The notes: generated by a model not told the origin, from the letters alone. Shown: positions 1,585-31,016, counted from the stretch's first letter. The stretch: 64,000 nt of DNA from Escherichia coli (GCF_050320075.1 NZ_CP190018.1), one strand, 5' to 3'. Numbers and translations: made by a program.

Positions 1585-2646
1585 TTATTTTTCGCTGGGC
1601 GTTTTGCCTTTTTGCAGAGTTTCTTTCACCTGACCGATAAGCTGACGACGGAAATCCCCGAGGCGTGGCTTGTCATCGTCAATCCACGGCAGCGGGCGGC
1701 AAAGCTCCATAGCTTTAATCCCCAGTCGTGCCGTCAGAAGTCCTGCACCAATCCCCTGAGCTGCGCGGGTAGACAAACGCGCAGCGAGATCTTGCGACAT
1801 CCAGTCCATCCCCACTTCGCGAACCAGTTCGCTGGCTCCGGCGAAAGCGATATTCAGCAATACCAGCTTGAACAGGCGCAAACGGCTGTAATACCCCAGT
1901 TCAATGCCATACAGCGTGGCGATGCGATTAATCAAACGCAGATTGCGCCAGGCGATAAATGCCATATCCACCAGCGCCAGCGGGCTAACGGCGATCATTA
2001 ACGTTGATTCCGCTGCCGAACGGCTGATTTCGCGCCGTGCCTGGGCATCTAAAACCGGCTGGACCAGATGAGCATACAGGCTGACCACTTCACGATCGTT
2101 CTGCGTTTCATGGATTGAGGCATACCAGCGTTGCAGCGCCGGATGCGACTGATCAATACCCGCCTGCTGCGCCAGTTTTTCGCAGAATGCACGGCCTTTA
2201 CCCGTGCCGTGACTGTGCAACAAATCGCGCGCTTCGTCGCGTTCATGGGCGCGCTGTCGCAAGCGCCATAAGCGCCGCCACTCTGTTACCACAGAACCTA
2301 CGCCAGCGCCGATAATCAATGCCCCAGCGGCACATCCACCCAGCGCCACCCAGTCCTGGGTTTGCCAGGCGTTCATTGTCCACTGTACACCCTGCCCGAC
2401 AACGCTTGCGCCAAACAGAGCCAACCCGCCCATCACCATTTTGCGCCACAGGCTGCGTTTCGGACGTAACGCTGCATCCATTACCGCTTCAACTTGCCCC
2501 TCTTCTTCCTGCGCTTCATCGAGCGTGGCCGGGGCAAAATTTTGCGCCTGATTTTCGTCAAAGGTCTGCTGCACCCTGAATTTTGGATTCTGATCGACCT
2601 CCAGTGGACCGTCGAAATCAATACGTGGTTTTAACGGTTCGGTCAT
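1585..2646 (-). CDS. ycjF: UPF0283 inner-membrane protein YcjF
   Basis: 353-aa ORF, same length and N-terminus ([13 protein letters not shown]...) as K-12 YcjF; overlaps the ycjX stop by 4 nt. Confidence 0.9.
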
Positions 2647-21402: not shown

Positions 21403-22209
21403 ATGATCGAAACGCTGCTTGAAGTGCGTAATTTAAGTAAAACGTTCCGCTACCGGACCGGTTGGTTTCGTCGTCAGACCGTAGAAGCGGTAAAACCCTT
21501 GAGCTTTACGCTACGTGAAGGCCAGACACTGGCGATTATTGGCGAGAATGGTTCGGGTAAATCCACGCTGGCAAAAATGCTGGCGGGAATGATAGAACCT
21601 ACCAGCGGCGAGTTATTGATTGACGATCATCCGCTGCATTTTGGCGATTATTCCTTCCGCAGTCAGCGTATTCGCATGATTTTTCAGGATCCTTCGACCT
21701 CGTTGAATCCCCGTCAACGTATCTCGCAAATCCTGGATTTTCCACTGCGTCTGAACACCGACCTGGAACCGGAACAGCGTCGCAAACAGATTATTGAAAC
21801 GATGCGTATGGTTGGGCTGCTACCGGATCACGTCAGTTACTATCCGCATATGTTGGCACCCGGGCAAAAACAGCGTCTGGGGCTGGCGCGCGCGCTGATA
21901 TTGCGCCCAAAAGTCATTATTGCCGATGAAGCCCTCGCCTCACTGGATATGTCGATGCGTTCGCAGTTGATTAATCTGATGCTTGAGTTACAGGAAAAAC
22001 AGGGCATTTCGTATATTTATGTTACCCAGCATATCGGAATGATGAAGCACATTAGCGACCAGGTGCTGGTGATGCATCAGGGCGAGGTTGTCGAGCGAGG
22101 CAGCACCGCCGATGTGCTGGCATCGCCGCTGCATGAACTCACCAAACGGCTGATCGCCGGTCATTTTGGCGAGGCATTGACGGCGGATGCGTGGCGTAAG
22201 GACCGTTAG
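21403..22209 (+). CDS. sapF: ABC transporter ATP-binding protein SapF
   Basis: 268 aa, Walker A GENGSGKST. Confidence 0.9.
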   Translation: MIETLLEVRNLSKTFRYRTGWFRRQTVEAVKPLSFTLREGQTLAIIGENGSGKSTLAKMLAGMIEPTSGELLIDDHPLHFGDYSFRSQRIRMIFQDPSTSLNPRQRISQILDFPLRLNTDLEPEQRRKQIIETMRMVGLLPDHVSYYPHMLAPGQKQRLGLARALILRPKVIIADEALASLDMSMRSQLINLMLELQEKQGISYIYVTQHIGMMKHISDQVLVMHQGEVVERGSTADVLASPLHELTKRLIAGHFGEALTADAWRKDR

Positions 22210-22257: not shown

Positions 22258-23421
22258 TTACTTTTGATTGTCGATTCTGGTGAGAGCAACCAGCAATGCC
22301 AGCGTATAACACACCGTAATTGCCAGACTCATTTTTAACAGTGTTTCTCCGCCAAACCCCGACAATGGCGCGGCTATACCGCCGAAGACAAACATGCTCA
22401 TCCCCATCAACGCAGACGCCGTTCCAGATTCCTGCGTCCCTACTCCACTCATAGCCTCTGCCCCGCCAACAGTGCCGATGCCGCTACAAAATGCAATAGT
22501 GAAAAATAATGCCACCAGTGCCGGAATGGGCAATTGTGTCCATGCGCATAAGACCGTGAGCAATGCACACAAAATTGCCGCTATCAGGCCACCTCGCAAC
22601 AATGTCATCGCGTTAATCCGTCGCGCCAGGCGCGAGAAGATCCATGAAGCAATGATAAGTCCGATGCCGTTAAGGCCAAACACCAGGCTAAATTGCATTG
22701 GACTAAAGCCAAATTCCTTCTGCAACACGAACGACGAAGAGCCGATATATGCAAACAAACCGGCCAGCATAAAACTTTGAATCAGGCAAAAGCGCATAAA
22801 ACGGCGGTTCTGCACCACGCTTCGTCCGGTTAATAGCAATGATGAGCCCCTTTTATTTTCTGGCAAGGTCTCATTAATAAATAACAGGCAGCCCAGCAAC
22901 AGTACGGTGCTAATTTCAGCCATTACCCAGAATAAAGTGCGCCAGTCAAAAGTGCTGACAATGTACCCGCCCAGCACTGGCGACAACACCGGTGCCAGGC
23001 CATTCACCGTCATTAACAGCGCAAAAAACTGGGTCAACGTTACTCCCTGATATTTGTCACGAGCAATAGAACGAGAGAGCACCGAACCACCCGCCCCCGC
23101 GATCCCTTGAATAAAACGCCAGACCACCAGCCAGTAAATATTGTTCGTTGTCGCGCACAAAATGGAAGAAACAATAAACAATAGCAACGACAAGATTAAC
23201 GGACGTTTACGCCCTATTTTGTCGCTCAGAGGGCCAAATAACAGTTGTCCGACGCCAAGACCGATCAGCGATGCGGTCAGGGTTAATTGCGTTATGGTCG
23301 TGGTTGCCGCCAGTTGCTCAGACATCTCCGGCAAAGCCGGCAAATAAAGATCGGTACACATCGGGCCGATACCGGCTAAAAGACCAAGAATCAATGCCCA
23401 TGAAAGAGAGACTCTAGCCAT
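22258..23421 (-). CDS. MFS drug:H+ antiporter, Bcr/CflA (DHA1) family
   Basis: 387-aa, ~12-TM hydrophobic ORF; N-terminal motif region (…DLYLPALP…; …GPLSDKIGRKRP…) resembles E. coli Bcr as I recall it; begins 8 nt after the OMF stop. Not part of the K-12 sapF–fabI interval as I remember it. Confidence 0.75.
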   Translation of the reverse strand: MARVSLSWALILGLLAGIGPMCTDLYLPALPEMSEQLAATTTITQLTLTASLIGLGVGQLLFGPLSDKIGRKRPLILSLLLFIVSSILCATTNNIYWLVVWRFIQGIAGAGGSVLSRSIARDKYQGVTLTQFFALLMTVNGLAPVLSPVLGGYIVSTFDWRTLFWVMAEISTVLLLGCLLFINETLPENKRGSSLLLTGRSVVQNRRFMRFCLIQSFMLAGLFAYIGSSSFVLQKEFGFSPMQFSLVFGLNGIGLIIASWIFSRLARRINAMTLLRGGLIAAILCALLTVLCAWTQLPIPALVALFFTIAFCSGIGTVGGAEAMSGVGTQESGTASALMGMSMFVFGGIAAPLSGFGGETLLKMSLAITVCYTLALLVALTRIDNQK

Positions 23422-23429
23422 ATTATTCC

Positions 23430-24803
23430 TTACTTGAGTGATGACATGCCGCCGCCCAGCGACTGCCAGAGCGTGATTCGGTTTGTAAAATCAGTCAGTT
23501 GTAGTGCCAGCAGCGCCTGCTGTGCGCTCCACAAGCTGCGCTGCGCCGTCAACACGGTCAGGTAATCACCAACACCCGCCTGATAGCGACGCAAGCCAAC
23601 ATCGACCGTTTGTTGCTCAGCTTTAACATACTGGCGCTGTGCATCCAGTTGCTCTTCAAGCGTGGTCCGCCGCGCCAGTGCGTTAGCGACATCTTTAAAT
23701 GCGCTCTGAACGGTTTTTTCATAGGTGGCAATGAGTCCACGCTTTTGTGCTTCTGCGTAACGAAGCTGCGCCAGATTACTTCCGCCAGTGAACAGCGGTA
23801 ATGTGACCGATGGCGTAAATGACCAGATCTGCATTCCGTGGCTGAACAACGACGACAATGCTTCACTGCCAACACCAGCGCTGGCAGTCAGCGAAATCGT
23901 CGGAAAAAAGTTAGCCCGCGCCGCGCCAATATCGGCATTGGCGCTCTTCAAATTATGTTCCGCTTCCTGGATATCCGGGCGACGCAGCAGAACGTCAGAT
24001 GACACTCCCGCAGGAACCAGACTTATCATCTGTTCCGGCAGGCTTTCCAGTGTTCCCGGTAGCAAATTTTCCTCAAGCGTTGTACCTGCCAGTAAGTTCA
24101 GCGCATTTTTATCCTGCATCACGTGTGTCTGATAGCTGGCAACGCTGGCGCGCGCTTGCTGATAAACACTCATCGCCTCACTGACATCTGTCGCTGCCGC
24201 CGTGCCAACCTGTTGCTGGCGCTGGATAATTTTCAATGAGTTTTCTGCACTGGCCATCGTTTCTTTTGCCAGGGCCAGGTTGCTGTTATCAGCCGCCAGT
24301 GTCAGCCAGGCGGTGCTGATTTCAGCAATCAGCGTTAAACGAGTGTTCTGGGCTGTAAATTCACTGGCAAGCCAGGTTTCCCGCGCCGCCCGAGATAAAC
24401 TCTGATTACGACCAAACAGATCTAACGTAAAACTGGACACCGTGCCGTCAGCCTCGGCAGTGGTTTCCGTACCATTCGCCAGCGAACGACTGCGGGTTGA
24501 ACTTAAGGCCGCATTCACCGTCGGGAATAACGACGCATTAGTTTGCCCATAGAGCGCCCGTGCTGAGTCAATATCAGCAATCGCTTTTTGCACATCGCGG
24601 TTACTGTTCAGTGCAATAGTCACCACCTGCTGCAATCGGGGATCGTGGATCACCTGCTGCCAGTCATGGCTGATTGCCTTTCCCTGGCCCTGTGCTCCCG
24701 GCAAGGTCGCCGGGATTGGGGATTCAGGCGTGCTGTAGTGGGGCTCGAGCGAGACACATCCCGCACTCAACAGCACCAGAAAAATAAGAGAACGACGCAA
24801 CAT
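23430..24803 (-). CDS. Outer-membrane efflux lipoprotein, OprM/NodT (TolC-superfamily) type
   Basis: 457 aa; lipoprotein signal with lipobox (MLRRSLIFLVLLSAGC); length and composition typical of OprM-type outer-membrane factors; begins 3 nt after the RND stop. Confidence 0.8.
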   Translation of the reverse strand: MLRRSLIFLVLLSAGCVSLEPHYSTPESPIPATLPGAQGQGKAISHDWQQVIHDPRLQQVVTIALNSNRDVQKAIADIDSARALYGQTNASLFPTVNAALSSTRSRSLANGTETTAEADGTVSSFTLDLFGRNQSLSRAARETWLASEFTAQNTRLTLIAEISTAWLTLAADNSNLALAKETMASAENSLKIIQRQQQVGTAAATDVSEAMSVYQQARASVASYQTHVMQDKNALNLLAGTTLEENLLPGTLESLPEQMISLVPAGVSSDVLLRRPDIQEAEHNLKSANADIGAARANFFPTISLTASAGVGSEALSSLFSHGMQIWSFTPSVTLPLFTGGSNLAQLRYAEAQKRGLIATYEKTVQSAFKDVANALARRTTLEEQLDAQRQYVKAEQQTVDVGLRRYQAGVGDYLTVLTAQRSLWSAQQALLALQLTDFTNRITLWQSLGGGMSSLK

Positions 24804-24806
24804 AAC

Positions 24807-27800
24807 TTACTCCTGACGGCGCGGTTTACCGGCAAACAAACGTTTCACCAGTACAAAAAACAGAGGAACAAAGAAAATAGCCAGCAACGTAGCGGTCAGC
24901 GTACCGCCAATAATGCCCGTACCAATGGCGATGCGGCTGTTCGCCCCTGCGCCGGTTGCTATCGCCAGCGGCATTACCCCCGCAATAAACGCCAGCGAGG
25001 TCATGATGATTGGGCGTAAACGAGTCTGCGCCGCGCGTAATGCCGCACGACTCAAGGAATAGCCCTCTGCAACCGCCGCTTCAGCAAATTCCACAATCAG
25101 AATGGCGTTTTTCGACGACAAGCCGATAGTGGTTAATAGCGCCACCTGGAAGTAAACATCGTTGTTTAAATCACGCATCCAGGCCGCCAGCGCCGCGCCA
25201 AGAAGCCCCAGAGGGATCACCAGAATGACCGAGAACGGGACTGACCAGCTTTCGTACAGTGCTGCAAGGCAGAGGAAAACCACCAGAATAGAAACTGCAT
25301 ACAGACTCAATGCCTGACCGCTGGCCAGTTTCTCCTGCAATGACAAACCACTCCAGGCCCAGGTTGTTCCCGCAGGAAGACTGTTTGCCAGTTCCTCCAT
25401 TTTTGTCATTGCATCGCCGGAACTAAAGCCAGTCGCATTTTCCCCCTGAATTTCATAGGCTGCAGAACCGTTGTAGCGCACCAGTCTTTCCGGTCCATAC
25501 AGCCAGCGGGTGGTTGCAAAAGCAGAGAATGGTGTCATGGCGTTATCGCTACCGCGCACAAACCATTTACCTAAGTCTGACGGCGTGGAACGAAATTCAC
25601 TGTCGCCCTGAATGTAGACTTTTTTCACACGACCACGGTCAATAAAGTCATTCACATAAGTACCGCCCCACGCACTGGACAGGGTGTCGGTGACATCATT
25701 CAAACTCAACCCTAATGACACCGCTTTATTACTATCAATATCTACCTGCAATTGCGGCATTTGTGGCAAATCATTGGCACGCACAGAATGTAACTCCGGA
25801 CTTTGATTCGCTTTTTCTATCAACTGATTACGCATTTGCAGTAGTGTTTCGCGATCGGTTCCACCGTTAGCTAACAATTCAAACGTAAAACCATTGCTTT
25901 GCCCCAGCCCATCAACGGCTGGCGGCGTCATCGCAAATACCGTGGCATCACGAATTGTGCCCAGCTCTTTGGTTGCCCGTAGGGCGATAGCCTGGGCGGT
26001 GTTTTCTGCCCCTTTACGTTGAGACCAGTTTTTCAACGAAACAAACGCCATCCCGGTGTTCTGTCCGCTGCCGCTAAAACTGAAACCATCAACGGTAAAA
26101 ATGACATCGGTATTTGCTTTCTCATTAATCAGGAACCAGTCAACAATCTGGCGATTCACTTCTGCTGTACGGGCAGCGGTCGCCCCGGCCGGCAGCGTGT
26201 ACTGCACCATGATTTCGCCCTGGTCTTCAGTGGGTAAGAAACTGCCCGGCAGTTTCCACATCATCAGGGCCATTCCACCACCCAGTACGACATAAAGCCC
26301 CATCGTTCGAGCAGCACGGCGCAGGACATAAATTACGCCTCGCTGATATTTATCTTCAGTACGGCGGTAAAAGCGGTTAAATGCGCCGAAAAAGCCTTTT
26401 TTATGTGGCGGAACATGCTGGAGGACGGAACCGCACAGGGCGGGAGTCAAGGTCAATGCCACTACCACGGAAAGCAGCATTGCGGAGATAATGGTTATCG
26501 AAAACTGACGATAAATTACCCCCGTAGATCCCCCAAAGAAGGCCATAGGCAGGAATACGGCTGACAACACCAGCGCAATGGCAACCAGTGCGCCAGAAAT
26601 CTCGCCCATTGATTTTTCCGTGGCTTCACGCGCGGGCAACCCTTCGTCACGCATAATACGTTCGACGTTCTCCACCACCACAATGGCATCGTCCACCAGC
26701 AAGCCGATCGCCAGCACCATTGCAAACAACGTCAGGGTATTAATCGAATAGCCAAACAACGCAAGAACGCCGAATGTGCCCAGCAAAACGACGGGGACAG
26801 CTAACGCCGGAATCAGTGTGGCACGCAGGTTTTGCAGGAATAAATACATCACGCAAACCACCAATACGATGGCTTCAAACAGCGTCTGAATTACGTCCTC
26901 TACAGAGATTTTAATAAATTCAGTGCTGTCTTTCGGGTATGCGATGTCGTATCCCTGCGGCATGTTCCGCTGGAATTCGGCAATCTTATCCTTGACCAGC
27001 GTCGCCGTATTCAGCGCATTCGCACCGGGCGAAAGCATTACAGCAACCCCGGCAGACGGGTGACCGTTAAGTTTGCCGATAGCGGTATAATCTTCACTGC
27101 CCATCTCAACGCGAGCCACATCTTTTATACGAACAACTGCGCCGTCTGACTGGCTTTTCACGATAATATTTTTGAACTGATCCACCGTCTGCAAGCGAGA
27201 CTGCGCACGTACCGTTGCGGTCAGTTGCTGAGTATTCGGTGAAGGCAATGCCCCTATTTTCCCGGCAGTAACCTGCACGTTTTGCGCTTCAATAGCACTT
27301 TGCACGTCTGAAGGCATTAGCGAGTAAGACGCCAGTTTGGCCGGGTCAAGCCAGATGCGCATAGCGTATTCCGCGCCAAAGACTTGCAGACTCCCCACAC
27401 CTTCAACACGCGCCAGCGGATCCTGAACGTTACTAACCAACCAGTCGGCGATATCCGAACTGGAGGCTTTGTCAGTGGTGTCATACACGGCAGCAATCAG
27501 CAAAAAGTTGCTTTGTGATTTCTCCACCGTAACACCCGTTTGCTGCACTTCGCTGGGTAGACGCGACTCCGCCTGCTGAATTTTATTCTGCACCTGAACC
27601 TGTGCAGTATCTGGATCGGTACCTTGTTCAAAGGTCACATTAATACTGACCGAACCATCAGAGCTGCTGGTTGAGCTGAAATAGAGTAAATTATCAAGCC
27701 CAGTGAGTTGTTGCTCGATAACCTGAGTCACGCTGTTCTCCAGCGTTTCGGCAGAAGCACCAGTATAAGTGGCTGAAATTTTAATGGTCGGTGGCGCAAC

Positions 27801-27914
27801 GTCAGGATATTGCGCGACGGGCAATGTGCGAATAGCCAGAATCCCCGCCAACATAATCAAAATGGCGATAACCCAGGCAAAGACCGGGCGGCGAACAAAA
27901 AAGCGCGAAAACAT
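24807..27914 (-). CDS. RND multidrug efflux permease, HAE1 family (AcrB/MexB-like paralog)
   Basis: 1035 aa; long blocks recognisably similar to AcrB (e.g. AVPVVLLGTFGVLALFGYSINTLT…LLVDDAIVVVENVERIM…; …LYESWSVPFSVILVIPLGLLGAALAA…); start overlaps the MFP stop by 1 nt. Confidence 0.9.
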   Translation of the reverse strand: MFSRFFVRRPVFAWVIAILIMLAGILAIRTLPVAQYPDVAPPTIKISATYTGASAETLENSVTQVIEQQLTGLDNLLYFSSTSSSDGSVSINVTFEQGTDPDTAQVQVQNKIQQAESRLPSEVQQTGVTVEKSQSNFLLIAAVYDTTDKASSSDIADWLVSNVQDPLARVEGVGSLQVFGAEYAMRIWLDPAKLASYSLMPSDVQSAIEAQNVQVTAGKIGALPSPNTQQLTATVRAQSRLQTVDQFKNIIVKSQSDGAVVRIKDVARVEMGSEDYTAIGKLNGHPSAGVAVMLSPGANALNTATLVKDKIAEFQRNMPQGYDIAYPKDSTEFIKISVEDVIQTLFEAIVLVVCVMYLFLQNLRATLIPALAVPVVLLGTFGVLALFGYSINTLTLFAMVLAIGLLVDDAIVVVENVERIMRDEGLPAREATEKSMGEISGALVAIALVLSAVFLPMAFFGGSTGVIYRQFSITIISAMLLSVVVALTLTPALCGSVLQHVPPHKKGFFGAFNRFYRRTEDKYQRGVIYVLRRAARTMGLYVVLGGGMALMMWKLPGSFLPTEDQGEIMVQYTLPAGATAARTAEVNRQIVDWFLINEKANTDVIFTVDGFSFSGSGQNTGMAFVSLKNWSQRKGAENTAQAIALRATKELGTIRDATVFAMTPPAVDGLGQSNGFTFELLANGGTDRETLLQMRNQLIEKANQSPELHSVRANDLPQMPQLQVDIDSNKAVSLGLSLNDVTDTLSSAWGGTYVNDFIDRGRVKKVYIQGDSEFRSTPSDLGKWFVRGSDNAMTPFSAFATTRWLYGPERLVRYNGSAAYEIQGENATGFSSGDAMTKMEELANSLPAGTTWAWSGLSLQEKLASGQALSLYAVSILVVFLCLAALYESWSVPFSVILVIPLGLLGAALAAWMRDLNNDVYFQVALLTTIGLSSKNAILIVEFAEAAVAEGYSLSRAALRAAQTRLRPIIMTSLAFIAGVMPLAIATGAGANSRIAIGTGIIGGTLTATLLAIFFVPLFFVLVKRLFAGKPRRQE

Positions 27915-29035
27915 CAGGCGTTGCCTCCATTAGCCTGAACTTCAACAGCCTTGACGGTCTGCCCTGAAGTGACTTTGGCAGAACCTTCAACAATCAGTCG
28001 GTCGCCGTTGTGCAGGCCGTTCAGCACCAGCCATTTATCACCATACGTTTCTCCCGTTTCGAGCGTTCGCTGCTCTACTTTATTGTCTTTATTCACCACC
28101 AGCGCAGTTGCATTGCCTTTAGCATCGCGCGTGACGCCCTGTTGCGGCGCGAGAATAGCGTCTTCCATCACGCCTTCATCGACACGAGCGCGAACAAACA
28201 TTCCCGGTAATAACTGCTGTTGTGGATTGGGGAAAATCGCCCGTAATGTCACCGAACCGGTAGACTCATCTACAGCGACTTCGGTGAGTTCCAGACGCCC
28301 TTTTTCGCTGTAGGTTGTGCCATCTTCCAGAATAAGTGAGACGCTCATGGTGTCACTGTTGGTCGCCAGTGACTGTTTACGCAGACGTAATAAATCGACA
28401 CTGGAGCGAGTGAGGTCGACATACATTGTATCCAGACCACGAACAGTCGTTAACGCTGTATCTTGCGACGCGGTCACCAGTGCGCCAGGGGTTACCGACG
28501 AAATGCCAATGCGCCCTGAAATCGGTGCGGTTACCGTGGTCCAGTCAAGATTAATGCGCGCAGTTTCCAGTGCGGCTTTTTTCGCCTCTACACTGGCTTT
28601 ATCTTGTGCACAGGTAGACTGAGCATCATCAGCATCCTGTTGTGAAACACCGTTCTCTTTCACCAGTCGGGCATAACGCTGCGCTTTCTGGCAATCGGCT
28701 TTTACCAGTGCCTGTGCTTGTTGTAATGCTGCCCGAGCTTCATTCCATGCAGCCTGATAACTGGCCGCATCAATCTGGTAGAGCGGCTGTCCAGCCTTGA
28801 CCAGATCACCTTCCTTAAATAAGCGTTTCTGGATAATTCCCCCAACCTGCGGACGTACTTCAGCACTGAGCGCAGCACTGGTGCGTCCGGTTAATTCACT
28901 GACTACCGAAACCGGTTGAGATTTGACTGTAACAACGCCGACTTCTGTTTCTGACGGGGATGAATTGTTACTTTGCGTATTATCACAACCCGATAAGAGC
29001 AGCATTGCCACTACAGATGTTGCTATATACTTCAT
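27914..29035 (-). CDS. Periplasmic adaptor (membrane-fusion protein) of the RND pump, AcrA/MexA-like lipoprotein
   Basis: Track ORF extends to 29068; the in-frame ATG at 29035 gives MKYIATSVVAMLLLSGCDN… (lipoprotein signal) with ggag 7–10 nt upstream. Confidence 0.8.
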   Translation of the reverse strand: MKYIATSVVAMLLLSGCDNTQSNNSSPSETEVGVVTVKSQPVSVVSELTGRTSAALSAEVRPQVGGIIQKRLFKEGDLVKAGQPLYQIDAASYQAAWNEARAALQQAQALVKADCQKAQRYARLVKENGVSQQDADDAQSTCAQDKASVEAKKAALETARINLDWTTVTAPISGRIGISSVTPGALVTASQDTALTTVRGLDTMYVDLTRSSVDLLRLRKQSLATNSDTMSVSLILEDGTTYSEKGRLELTEVAVDESTGSVTLRAIFPNPQQQLLPGMFVRARVDEGVMEDAILAPQQGVTRDAKGNATALVVNKDNKVEQRTLETGETYGDKWLVLNGLHNGDRLIVEGSAKVTSGQTVKAVEVQANGGNA

Positions 29036-29183
29036 TATTTTCTCCAGGGTGAGAAATACCCTCCTCATTAAAATTAATGAGGATATGTCAGGGATATTCA
29101 GTTATAACGAACCCGCATCGCGAAATGAATTTCGCAATGAAATAAGGGGGATTAATATCCCCCGCTATTGGTTAATTCTGTTC

Positions 29184-29750
29184 TTATTTATTTATCAACA
29201 TACTAACAATATCCTGATATATTTCCTGCAGATGTTGTGGATCGCTTTTTTGCGGTGTTAAACGACGATAAACCGTACCTTCCATCATGGTAGCAAACAC
29301 TTCAACGCAGCAACGAATGTGCTCGTCGCTAAGATGGGGATGCATTCTTTTCATATGTGCACAACCGTTAGCGAACATTCTGGCGTCAGCTTCTTCAAGC
29401 ATTGCCATAACCCGCGGGTTGCGTGTGGCTTCTGCAGCCACTTCCAGCATCAGCGCGTCGTCGTCCTCATTTAAGGATTTACGCAAGGCAAGGACTTCCG
29501 GGAAGTGATCGGTACGCGCGTCAATGTCCATTTGGGCAATACGAAAGTCGATGATACGGCGAACCATCTCTTCAATAATGGCATCTTTGTTGGCGAAGTA
29601 ACGATATATCTGACCCACGCTAAGCTGAGCTTCGCTGGCAATTTGCGACATACTGGCGGCATGAAACCCGCAGCGACGAAAACACCGACGGGCGGCGTTA
29701 ATGATTTCATCCTGACGCTGTTTGTGGCGTATCTCCAGTTTGCTGGTCAT
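29184..29750 (-). CDS. TetR/AcrR-family transcriptional regulator
   Basis: Track ORF extends to 29849; the in-frame ATG at 29750 (MTSKLEIRHKQRQDEIINAARRCFRRCGFHAASMSQIASEAQLSVGQIYRYFANKDAI…) places the TetR HTH signature near the N-terminus, ~188 aa. Start choice is an inference. Confidence 0.7.
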   Translation of the reverse strand: MTSKLEIRHKQRQDEIINAARRCFRRCGFHAASMSQIASEAQLSVGQIYRYFANKDAIIEEMVRRIIDFRIAQMDIDARTDHFPEVLALRKSLNEDDDALMLEVAAEATRNPRVMAMLEEADARMFANGCAHMKRMHPHLSDEHIRCCVEVFATMMEGTVYRRLTPQKSDPQHLQEIYQDIVSMLINK

Positions 29751-30227
29751 TTCTGTCTCCTGGCCTATCACTTGGTGAGAATGATCGTTCTCATTTTTGC
29801 TGATTATACGTTTCTCCAAAGTAATGGAAAGTATTTTTATCTTATTCATGGTGCATATTCTGATAATGAAGAGATTGTGGAGATTCTGTGAAGATAGTTG
29901 ACAATATTAAGTTGGGGTCAATTCATCAGAAAGGCTGCTACTTGTTGTCGCCAGTTCTGTTTTCATCATCAAACTTATCGGAGCTAATACGAATAGTTTC
30001 AGAGTCAGATTCTATAAGATATTCCCCCAACCTACCCCTTGCAGGCGTCAAGAGTAGATAACGCAAAATGCTCTGTACCTCAGCTTCTCTCCGGTACAGA
30101 AAGCGCAACTATAGCCACCCACAGCCAGGTTGATTATAATAACCGTTTATCTGTTCGTACTGTTTACTAAAACGACGAATCGCCTGATTTTCAGGCACAA
30201 CAAGCATCAACAATAAGGATTAAAGCT

Positions 30228-31016
30228 ATGGGTTTTCTTTCCGGTAAGCGCATTCTGGTAACCGGTGTTGCCAGCAAACTGTCCATCGCCTACGGTATCG
30301 CTCAGGCGATGCACCGCGAAGGAGCTGAACTGGCATTCACCTACCAGAACGACAAACTGAAAGGCCGCGTAGAAGAATTTGCCGCTCAATTGGGTTCTGA
30401 CATCGTTCTGCAGTGCGATGTTGCAGAAGATGCCAGCATCGACACCATGTTCGCTGAACTGGCGAAAGTTTGGCCGAAATTTGACGGTTTCGTACACTCT
30501 ATTGGTTTTGCACCTGGCGATCAACTGGATGGTGACTATGTTAATGCCGTTACCCGTGAAGGCTTCAAAATTGCCCACGACATCAGCTCCTACAGCTTCG
30601 TTGCAATGGCAAAAGCTTGCCGCTCCATGCTGAATCCGGGTTCTGCCCTGCTGACCCTTTCCTACCTTGGCGCTGAGCGCGCTATCCCGAACTACAACGT
30701 TATGGGTCTGGCAAAAGCGTCTCTGGAAGCAAACGTGCGCTATATGGCGAACGCGATGGGTCCGGAAGGTGTGCGTGTTAACGCCATCTCTGCGGGTCCG
30801 ATCCGTACTCTGGCGGCTTCCGGTATCAAAGACTTCCGCAAAATGCTGGCTCATTGCGAAGCCGTTACCCCGATTCGCCGTACCGTTACCATTGAAGATG
30901 TGGGTAACTCTGCGGCATTCCTGTGCTCCGATCTCTCTGCCGGTATCTCCGGTGAAGTGGTCCACGTTGACGGCGGTTTCAGCATCGCTGCAATGAACGA
31001 ACTCGAACTGAAATAA
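30228..31016 (+). CDS. fabI: Enoyl-[acyl-carrier-protein] reductase (NADH), FabI
   Basis: 262 aa, [51 protein letters not shown]…; SDR fold. Confidence 0.95.

Follow-up and report, generated by a model that had tools for sequence, protein, structure and literature searches.

Three inverted repeats in the eefR–eefA spacer of the Escherichia coli eefRABCD efflux operon: probable RNA stem-loops of the operon transcript rather than TetR operators

When palindromes lie between a TetR-family repressor gene and the efflux genes that follow it on the same strand, are they binding sites for the repressor on DNA, or do they act in the transcript that runs through them? The eefRABCD efflux operon of Escherichia coli raises this question in a 64 000-nucleotide stretch of chromosome (NZ_CP190018.1, assembly GCF_050320075.1; hereafter the window), where sapF and fabI flank the five genes, all of them on the minus strand, and the 148-bp gap between the repressor gene eefR and the adaptor gene eefA contains three inverted repeats (Table 1). 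The gap is AT-rich, with a GC content of approximately 0.40 in the 400-nt bin that holds it vs approximately 0.5 for the operon.

A 1331-bp query comprising the gap, eefR and the upstream intergenic region is 100% identical to the sequence of many RefSeq E. coli chromosomes and was found at a coverage of at least 80% in 2037 of 5426 complete genomes, a share in keeping with the published finding that the operon is restricted to phylogroups B2, D, E, F and G (Microb Genom 2026, PMC12817139). The gap occurs once per genome in the 2040 eef-positive E. coli genomes (at least 99% identical in 1905 of them), and its single-copy status excludes a dispersed repeat of the REP/BIME or ERIC type. In E. 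coli strain razor3 (NZ_CP176051.1) the spacer matches in two separate places, the best of which covers only query positions 57–148, and this suggests an insertion or rearrangement within the eefR–eefA spacer. The longest open reading frame would start eefA at an alternative ATG at 29068, but this lies inside stem-loop i, lacks a Shine-Dalgarno sequence and is not conserved, and the RefSeq start at 29035 was retained. On the other side of eefR, the 477-bp intergenic region shared with the essential gene fabI carries back-to-back promoter-like sites.

Table 1. Features of the eef locus, with coordinates counted from the first letter of the window except for the Klebsiella leaders, which are given in the coordinates of their own loci.
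Feature	Position	Strand	Sequence or remarks
sapF	21403–22209		one flank of eefRABCD
eefD	22258–23421	minus	MFS transporter
eefC	23430–24803	minus	outer-membrane factor
eefB	24807–27914	minus	RND pump
eefA	27914–29035	minus	periplasmic adaptor (membrane-fusion protein); ATG at 29035
eefR–eefA gap	29036–29183		148 bp
Stem-loop iv (small, 6 bp)	29038–29055	minus	UUUCUC-ACCCUG-GAGAAA; overlaps the eefA Shine-Dalgarno GGAG (29042–29045)
Operator look-alike	29050–29067		TGAGAAATACCCTCCTCA; 11/12 half-site bases, no GATC core
Repeat (i)	29062–29083		TCCTCATTAA-AA-TTAATGAGGA; 10+10 perfect, 2-nt centre
Stem-loop i	29062–29083	minus	UCCUCAUUA-AUUU-UAAUGAGGA; 9 bp, 27–48 nt upstream of the eefA AUG
Mini-ORF	29098–29118	minus	AUG CGG GUU CGU UAU AAC UGA; AUG at 29118–29116
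Repeat (ii)	core 29120–29135; extended 29116–29139		11-nt arms, the one mismatch being a U.G wobble on the mRNA strand
Stem-loop ii	29116–29139	minus	CAUUGCGAAA-UUCA-UUUCGCGAUG; 10 bp including one U.G wobble
U-rich tail of stem-loop iii	29136–29145	minus	UUAUUUCAUU; distal part doubles as the 5′ arm of stem-loop ii
Repeat (iii)	29146–29163		GGGGGAT-TAAT-ATCCCCC; 7+7, 4-nt loop
Stem-loop iii	29146–29163	minus	GGGGGAU-AUUA-AUCCCCC on the mRNA; candidate leaky intrinsic terminator or 3′-end stabiliser
eefR	29184–29750	minus	TetR-family repressor, 188 aa; stop codon 29184–29186
EefR operator	29776–29793		window strand TGAGAATGATCGTTCTCA; eef strand TGAGAACGATCATTCTCA
eefR promoter	29803–29830	minus	−35 TTTCCA (29830–29825), 16-nt spacer, −10 TATAAT (29808–29803); 10/12 match
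Promoter-like site toward fabI	30112–30140	plus	TAGCCA-17-TATAAT
fabI	30228–31016		other flank of eefRABCD
Klebsiella orphan leader, L011	2240–2500		K. pneumoniae ATCC 13883
Klebsiella orphan leaders, L006, L007, L008, L034	~2204–2500		
Klebsiella orphan leader, L012	2080–2500		

Repeats and predicted stem-loops of the spacer

A sequence-only reading of the window had listed three inverted repeats in the gap, and all three are present with perfect cores in a spacer of the length that it gave. Repeat (i), which had been described with 9-bp arms and a 4-nt loop, takes that form as RNA, 27–48 nt upstream of the eefA ATG, and the core of repeat (ii) is exactly the 7+7 palindrome reported (GCGAAAT-GA-ATTTCGC). 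The hairpin of repeat (iii) does begin 20 nt after the eefR stop, although its arms had been given as 6+6 and are in fact longer. The clustering of these repeats is not due to chance. Of 41 perfect inverted repeats (arms of at least 7 and loops of at most 6 nt) in the window, three lie inside the gap, which is the only 148-nt stretch of the window to hold three, and when the gap was shuffled 20 000 times with dinucleotides preserved, just 4 shuffles reached this number. The gap transcript also folds more stably than expected (z = −3.67, with 0 of 200 shuffles folding as well; z = −4.35 for a slightly different span of the E. coli spacer), the single hairpins having z-scores from −2.8 to −3.6 each. 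As expected for palindromes, these minimum free energy (MFE) z-scores do not tell the two strands apart, so that the strand assignment rests on the counts of G.U vs A.C pairs given below.

Read along the mRNA, stem-loop iii comes first (−13.9 kcal/mol with flanks, z −3.26). Its stem of 7 bp (five of them G-C) closed by a 4-nt loop is GC-rich and starts 20 nt past the eefR stop codon, both as looked for in an intrinsic terminator, and its tail satisfies the scan rule of at least five T in eight, so that the element was flagged as terminator-like. The U tract is interrupted in E. coli (UUAUUUCA). Most eefR-containing genera have 5–7 U in the 8 nt after stem iii, with better tracts such as UUUUUGUCGU or UUUUUUGUCA; Phytobacter, UBA3516 and Escherichia albertii have only 2–4 U of 8 and retain the stem, and since the stem is kept where the U tract is poor, termination cannot be the sole role of this hairpin. 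The earlier proposal that repeat (iii) is a terminator or attenuator thus gains support from the GC-clamped stem, the U-rich tail, the position and the conservation with covariation, but termination there can be only partial because read-through is documented (see below).

Stem-loop ii (−10.9 kcal/mol) starts within the distal part of the tail of stem-loop iii. Stem-loop i (−11.6 kcal/mol, z −3.59) ends 26 nt before the eefA AUG and leaves the Shine-Dalgarno sequence outside. The latter is overlapped by the small stem-loop iv, which appears in both the MFE and the centroid folds and is strong only in mainstream E. coli; in this region TCTCAC of E. coli is replaced by GTTCAC in Escherichia whittamii and E. 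coli SCPM-O-B-8794 (a two-base difference in the stem-loop iv arm) and by ATTCAC in E. albertii.

A mini-ORF has its AUG at the base of stem-loop ii. It comprises 6 codons in E. coli, 1 in E. albertii, 6 in Raoultella and 12 in Enterobacter and Klebsiella pneumoniae, is absent in Kluyvera and extends to approximately 29 codons from a GUG in Phytobacter; with a length that is not conserved, a location inside stem ii and no spaced Shine-Dalgarno sequence, it was rejected as a leader peptide. A scan of 28800–30300 against Rfam 15 (E ≤ 10) returned nothing credible, the best hits having E = 2.6–8.5 and scores far below gathering.

The EefR operator and a look-alike in the spacer

The locus is that of the published E. 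coli eefRABCD (PMC12482432, PMC12817139), for which EMSA and mutagenesis have placed EefR on a palindrome upstream of eefR, TGAGAACGATCATTCTCA (Shen et al., 2025, Virulence, PMC12482432). In the window this operator lies at 29776–29793, 10 nt downstream of the −10 box of the eefR promoter, whose activity and repression by EefR were demonstrated with a GFP fusion. Deletion of the palindrome, or a single half-site change from TGAGAA to TGAGGA, abolished the EMSA shift (PMC12482432). The same study used as its 'nonspecific' cold competitor a fragment made with primers eefA-gel-F (ACAGAATTAACCAATAGCGG) and eefA-gel-R (TATTTTCTCCAGGGTGAGAAA). These primers map to window positions 29181 and 29036, so the competitor contains all three repeats, and it did not compete for EefR, the cold fragment being present at 1–2x only (PMC12482432). 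Furthermore, RT-PCR products were obtained across all junctions of the cluster, eefR–eefA included, and eefA mRNA increased 83-fold upon eefR inactivation (Shen et al., 2025); together these two results show read-through from the eefR promoter. The sequence-only reading had noted that the regulator is co-directional with the pump genes and had considered both read-through and a separate promoter: the former is borne out by the RT-PCR and the 83-fold increase, while for the latter hand inspection and a consensus scan (a weak test) predicted no sigma-70-like site on the eef strand within 29036–29183, the only good site on that strand being the one upstream of eefR.

A scan for EefA with one genome per species gave 79 loci. 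In 18 of them eefR precedes eefA on the same strand; represented among these are Escherichia (four lineages), Lelliottia, Pseudocitrobacter, Phytobacter, Kluyvera, Raoultella, Kosakonia, Enterobacter, Citrobacter and a MAG. One conserved copy of the operator TGAGAAYGATCRTTCTCA was found in 17 of these 18 loci (approximately 11 genera), 40–48 nt upstream of eefR, in most cases just past a conserved TATAAT and nowhere else in the ~6-kb locus. The exception, Escherichia sp. MOD1-EC7003 (L004), has one half-site change at the same operator position.

The repeats of the spacer are of another kind. None of the three matches the EefR motif TGAGAA-YGATCR-TTCTCA, and the proposal that repeats (i) and (ii) are operators for the TetR protein did not hold, given that the gap fragment failed to compete at 1–2x, that the true site is upstream of eefR, and that the repeats vary in sequence across genera with only their pairing kept whereas the true operator is conserved in sequence. 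It falls on the very grounds that the sequence-only reading had set against itself, i.e. a lack of binding to this region or transcription of the pump genes by read-through, because of the competition and co-transcription data. Palindromes i–iii should not be annotated as TetR operators.

One stretch of the spacer does approach the operator. Only two sites in the 64 kb have at most one mismatch to TGAGAA-N6-TTCTCA, namely the operator itself and the look-alike at 29050–29067, where 0.09 such extra sites would be expected. The look-alike is built from two RNA arms, the 3′ one of stem-loop i and the 5′ one of stem-loop iv, and selection at the RNA level can therefore explain it. It has no GATC core, which is invariant in the operators of all 18 loci, it carries the same A-to-G half-site change that abolished binding in print, and it sits inside the non-competing EMSA fragment. 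It is also absent from E. whittamii, E. albertii and the divergent E. coli loci, i.e. not conserved outside mainstream E. coli, in which it might serve as a weak auxiliary EefR site.

In both published studies (PMC12482432, PMC12817139) the eefR–eefA spacer appears only as the nonspecific EMSA control and its hairpins are not described, nor did we find a description of them, or any mapping of 3′ ends in the spacer, in the few relevant eef papers searched. The operon, its repressor and its operator are already published, and as far as these papers go the spacer hairpins are new for eefRABCD.

Conservation of pairing across genera and after loss of eefR

The eefR–eefA spacers share little sequence identity between genera, and independent single-sequence folds place hairpins at the same three positions in each of them, with spacer z-scores from −2.1 to −4.35 in all 15 eefR-containing lineages. 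A covariance model seeded on Raoultella and Enterobacter and rebuilt on 15 hits was used to align 21 orthologous spacers, that of the window among them, which represent more than 10 genera, with repeats iii, ii and i as helices 1, 2 and 3; the first-round model put Escherichia repeat ii on iii, and the second round aligned all three helices. Over the 21 sequences 92.8% of cells are paired, vs 42–60% with the partner slid by 1–3 columns, and changes on both sides occur in 19 of 23 pairs, the observed measures being reached by 0 of 500 shuffles. By helix, double-sided changes affect 7/7 pairs of helix 1 (iii) and 7/8 pairs of helix 3 (i), and 97% of cells are paired in helix 2 (ii). The alignment method itself has a bias towards pairing and G.U, and shared ancestry among the sequences means that these counts are not independent events; they are to be read as supportive rather than exact.

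RNAalifold on a structure-blind MAFFT alignment of 17 spacers recovers helix ii, with 6 of 9 pairs compensatory, and this helix only; helices i and iii are missed because differences in loop length mis-register them. On the eef mRNA strand there are 45 G.U vs 3 A.C pairs (any G.U in 13 pair columns, any A.C in 2). Examples are E. coli SCPM-O-B-8794, in which substitutions in stems iii and i result in G.U pairs, and stem ii of E. albertii, with a change from G-C to A-U plus a G.U. Compensatory change together with G.U pairs on the mRNA strand argues for RNA structure on the sense transcript, rather than for a protein site on duplex DNA or an antisense feature. As judged from these comparisons, the three repeats are RNA hairpins, conserved only as stem-loops and not in sequence.

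Klebsiella species have lost the eefR coding sequence and kept the promoter, operator and leader. Decay of hairpins iii and ii is seen in the K. oxytoca group and K. indica, where they retain only −0.1 to −2.8 kcal/mol and the spacer z-score is about 0, with hairpin i persisting at −7 to −10.4 kcal/mol. This links iii and ii with eefR, and i with eefA; the pattern rests on few independent losses, and K. pneumoniae, which lacks eefR yet keeps all three hairpins, is an exception to it. There the leader is a 5′ UTR with a good terminator (AGGAACAUCUGUGUUCCUUUUUUGU). Overexpression of eefA has been described in a K. pneumoniae mutant, in a paper that gives no causal mutation (PMC7331594).

The orphan eefR promoter of Klebsiella (TTTCCA…TATAAT) is accompanied by an intact operator with no repressor gene nearby, e.g. 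TGAGAATGATCATTCTCA at 2282–2299 of L011. This orphan promoter and operator, followed by the same leader, constitute a natural experiment on the leader without its repressor.

In Escherichia sp. MOD1-EC7003 an insertion of approximately 124 bp (2242–2366 of L004) lies between the eefR stop and stem-loop iii, and the hairpins remain. The insertion contains the ERIC1R and ERIC2 primer sequences, and we take it to be an ERIC/IRU element; sequences matching it at 90–95% identity occur at one or two sites of each of 2761 E. coli genomes. A divergent TetR gene is found in the relatives from Serratia, Dickeya, Brenneria and Pectobacterium (L026, L027, L030, L031 and L035); these loci carry, at about 2425–2470, a 24-bp palindrome (TTGAGAATGAACGTTCATTCTCAA) approximately 25 nt upstream of the start of the eefA-like pump gene.

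A model for the spacer, its alternatives and its known counterparts

The repeats are probably RNA stem-loops, formed in the untranslated spacer that the polycistronic eefRABCD mRNA carries between eefR and eefA, and not DNA operators, and this is the explanation that we prefer. Transcription would start at a single EefR-repressed promoter upstream of eefR and continue through the spacer into eefA, with stem-loop iii serving as a leaky intrinsic terminator and/or as a barrier to 3′ exonucleases. Some transcripts would end after eefR, leaving the repressor in excess over the pump, and the read-through transcripts would supply eefABCD. Stem-loop ii may form directly behind stem-loop iii. Stem-loops ii and i would belong to the eefA leader, in which i, together with the E. 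coli-specific iv, could provide a structured 5′ leader that most likely sets the stability and the rate of translation initiation of eefABCD. It is from this anatomy that we infer partial termination at iii and the roles in stability and translation.

Two other explanations would place the function of the palindromes in the DNA. One makes repeats (i) and/or (ii) EefR operators that control a separate eefA promoter in the gap; their operator-like size beside a TetR gene, and the statistically unexpected look-alike with its 11/12 half-site bases, speak for it. It is very improbable, since the gap fragment did not compete and a single A-to-G change such as that of the look-alike abolished the shift. 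The repeats differ from TGAGAA-N6-TTCTCA and vary between genera where the true operator is constant, and the look-alike is missing in E. whittamii, E. albertii and divergent E. coli. The gap has no predicted promoter-like site on the eef strand, and the co-transcription and 83-fold derepression stem from the upstream promoter. Another dimeric regulator or a nucleoid protein (e.g. H-NS) might use them, or they might flank an internal promoter: the spacer is AT-rich relative to the operon, H-NS silencing of eefABC is reported for Klebsiella aerogenes, and eefR-less Klebsiella still express eefA in some mutants. We consider this improbable, however, as one would expect the site of a sequence-specific protein to keep its sequence and here only pairing is conserved, while the strand-specific G.U wobbles amount to C/A mismatches in the symmetry of duplex DNA; the internal promoter finds neither a predicted sigma-70-like site on the eef strand in the gap nor agreement with the large EefR-dependent change in eefA, which speaks against a strong constitutive one.

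At the RNA level, the spacer could instead be a dedicated, signal-responsive cis-regulatory RNA (a conditional attenuator, a thermosensor, or a leader controlled by an sRNA or protein) that gates read-through or eefA translation independently of EefR. In such a second gate, stem-loop iii would end most transcripts unless a signal or factor intervened, i and iv would control eefA translation, and the look-alike would perhaps add a weak auxiliary EefR site. Compatible with it are a leader of 148 nt that holds three to four conserved hairpins and a terminator-like element ahead of the pump genes, the retention of this leader with a good terminator in K. pneumoniae after loss of eefR, the cryptic state of the pump under laboratory conditions and the covering of the Shine-Dalgarno sequence by stem-loop iv in E. 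coli. If true, it could contribute to an explanation of the cryptic state of EefABC in bacteria that have lost eefR, such as Klebsiella. We nevertheless hold it to be rather unlikely: no Rfam family matches, loops and stems are not conserved in sequence and so offer no core resembling a conserved ligand pocket, no conserved alternative (antiterminator) pairing was identified, and a mini-ORF of 1 to ~29 codons without a spaced Shine-Dalgarno sequence makes leader-peptide attenuation unlikely. That the hairpins are functionless leftovers kept by drift, whether of a rearrangement that brought eefR in front of eefA or of mobile elements, would fit the relatives with a divergent TetR gene, which are without the three-hairpin leader, and the ERIC insertion in one Escherichia lineage, from which the spacer appears to tolerate insertions. 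It is hardly credible, given that 19 of 23 pairs, compared over more than 10 genera, have compensatory changes, which imply that pairing is under selection, that the decay of iii and ii after eefR loss in the K. oxytoca group and K. indica is what would be expected if they are selected elsewhere, and that a gap with a single copy per genome is no dispersed repeat.

The preferred reading, stem-loops in the spacer of one polycistronic mRNA, bears on resistance. The operon encodes a seventh RND efflux system. It is found only in the E. coli phylogroups with the strongest association with infection, and its derepression can lead to multidrug resistance. Transcription gets to the pump genes solely by reading through a conserved structured spacer in which a terminator-like hairpin comes first, and this points to a post-initiation layer of control that could limit or tune pump expression and could be a target of resistance-selecting mutations.

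Among TetR-controlled pumps, CmeR-cmeABC of Campylobacter jejuni has a co-directional TetR gene directly upstream of the pump genes, with the operator in the regulator–pump intergenic region, an arrangement that the sequence-only reading implicitly took as its model. The eef locus shares this order of TetR, adaptor, RND and outer-membrane genes on one strand; unlike in CmeR-cmeABC, its operator is upstream of the regulator gene, so that eefR is autoregulated and the pump is expressed via read-through, and its regulator–pump spacer carries RNA structure instead. The Serratia, Dickeya, Brenneria and Pectobacterium loci encode a TetR protein approximately 47% identical to EefR and use the same half-sites, TGAGAA/TTCTCA, but differ from eef in a half-site spacing of N10 rather than N6, in a divergent regulator and in having no three-hairpin leader.

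Closer counterparts to the spacer are found in other kinds of operon. Internal leaky terminators set the ratios of operon genes, as do T1 between rpsU and dnaG in the E. coli rpsU-dnaG-rpoD operon and the rplL-rpoB attenuator. As in these cases, eef has a hairpin with a U-rich tail just after the upstream cistron of a co-transcribed operon, and by this analogy more product of the first gene than of the downstream genes would be expected, termination at stem-loop iii being putative; unlike them, eef has an imperfect U tract and two more conserved hairpins behind it. Intercistronic stem-loops can also act as stabilisers, e.g. the REP hairpins in malE-malF and the puf operon hairpins of Rhodobacter. 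In the same way the eef spacer hairpins could shield the upstream part of the mRNA from 3′ exonucleases or the downstream part from 5′-end-dependent decay, although the eef spacer, in contrast to REP/BIME elements, is single-copy and unrelated to REP in sequence. By analogy, then, the eefR–eefA spacer functionally resembles both the internal leaky terminators and the intercistronic stabiliser hairpins of other operons.
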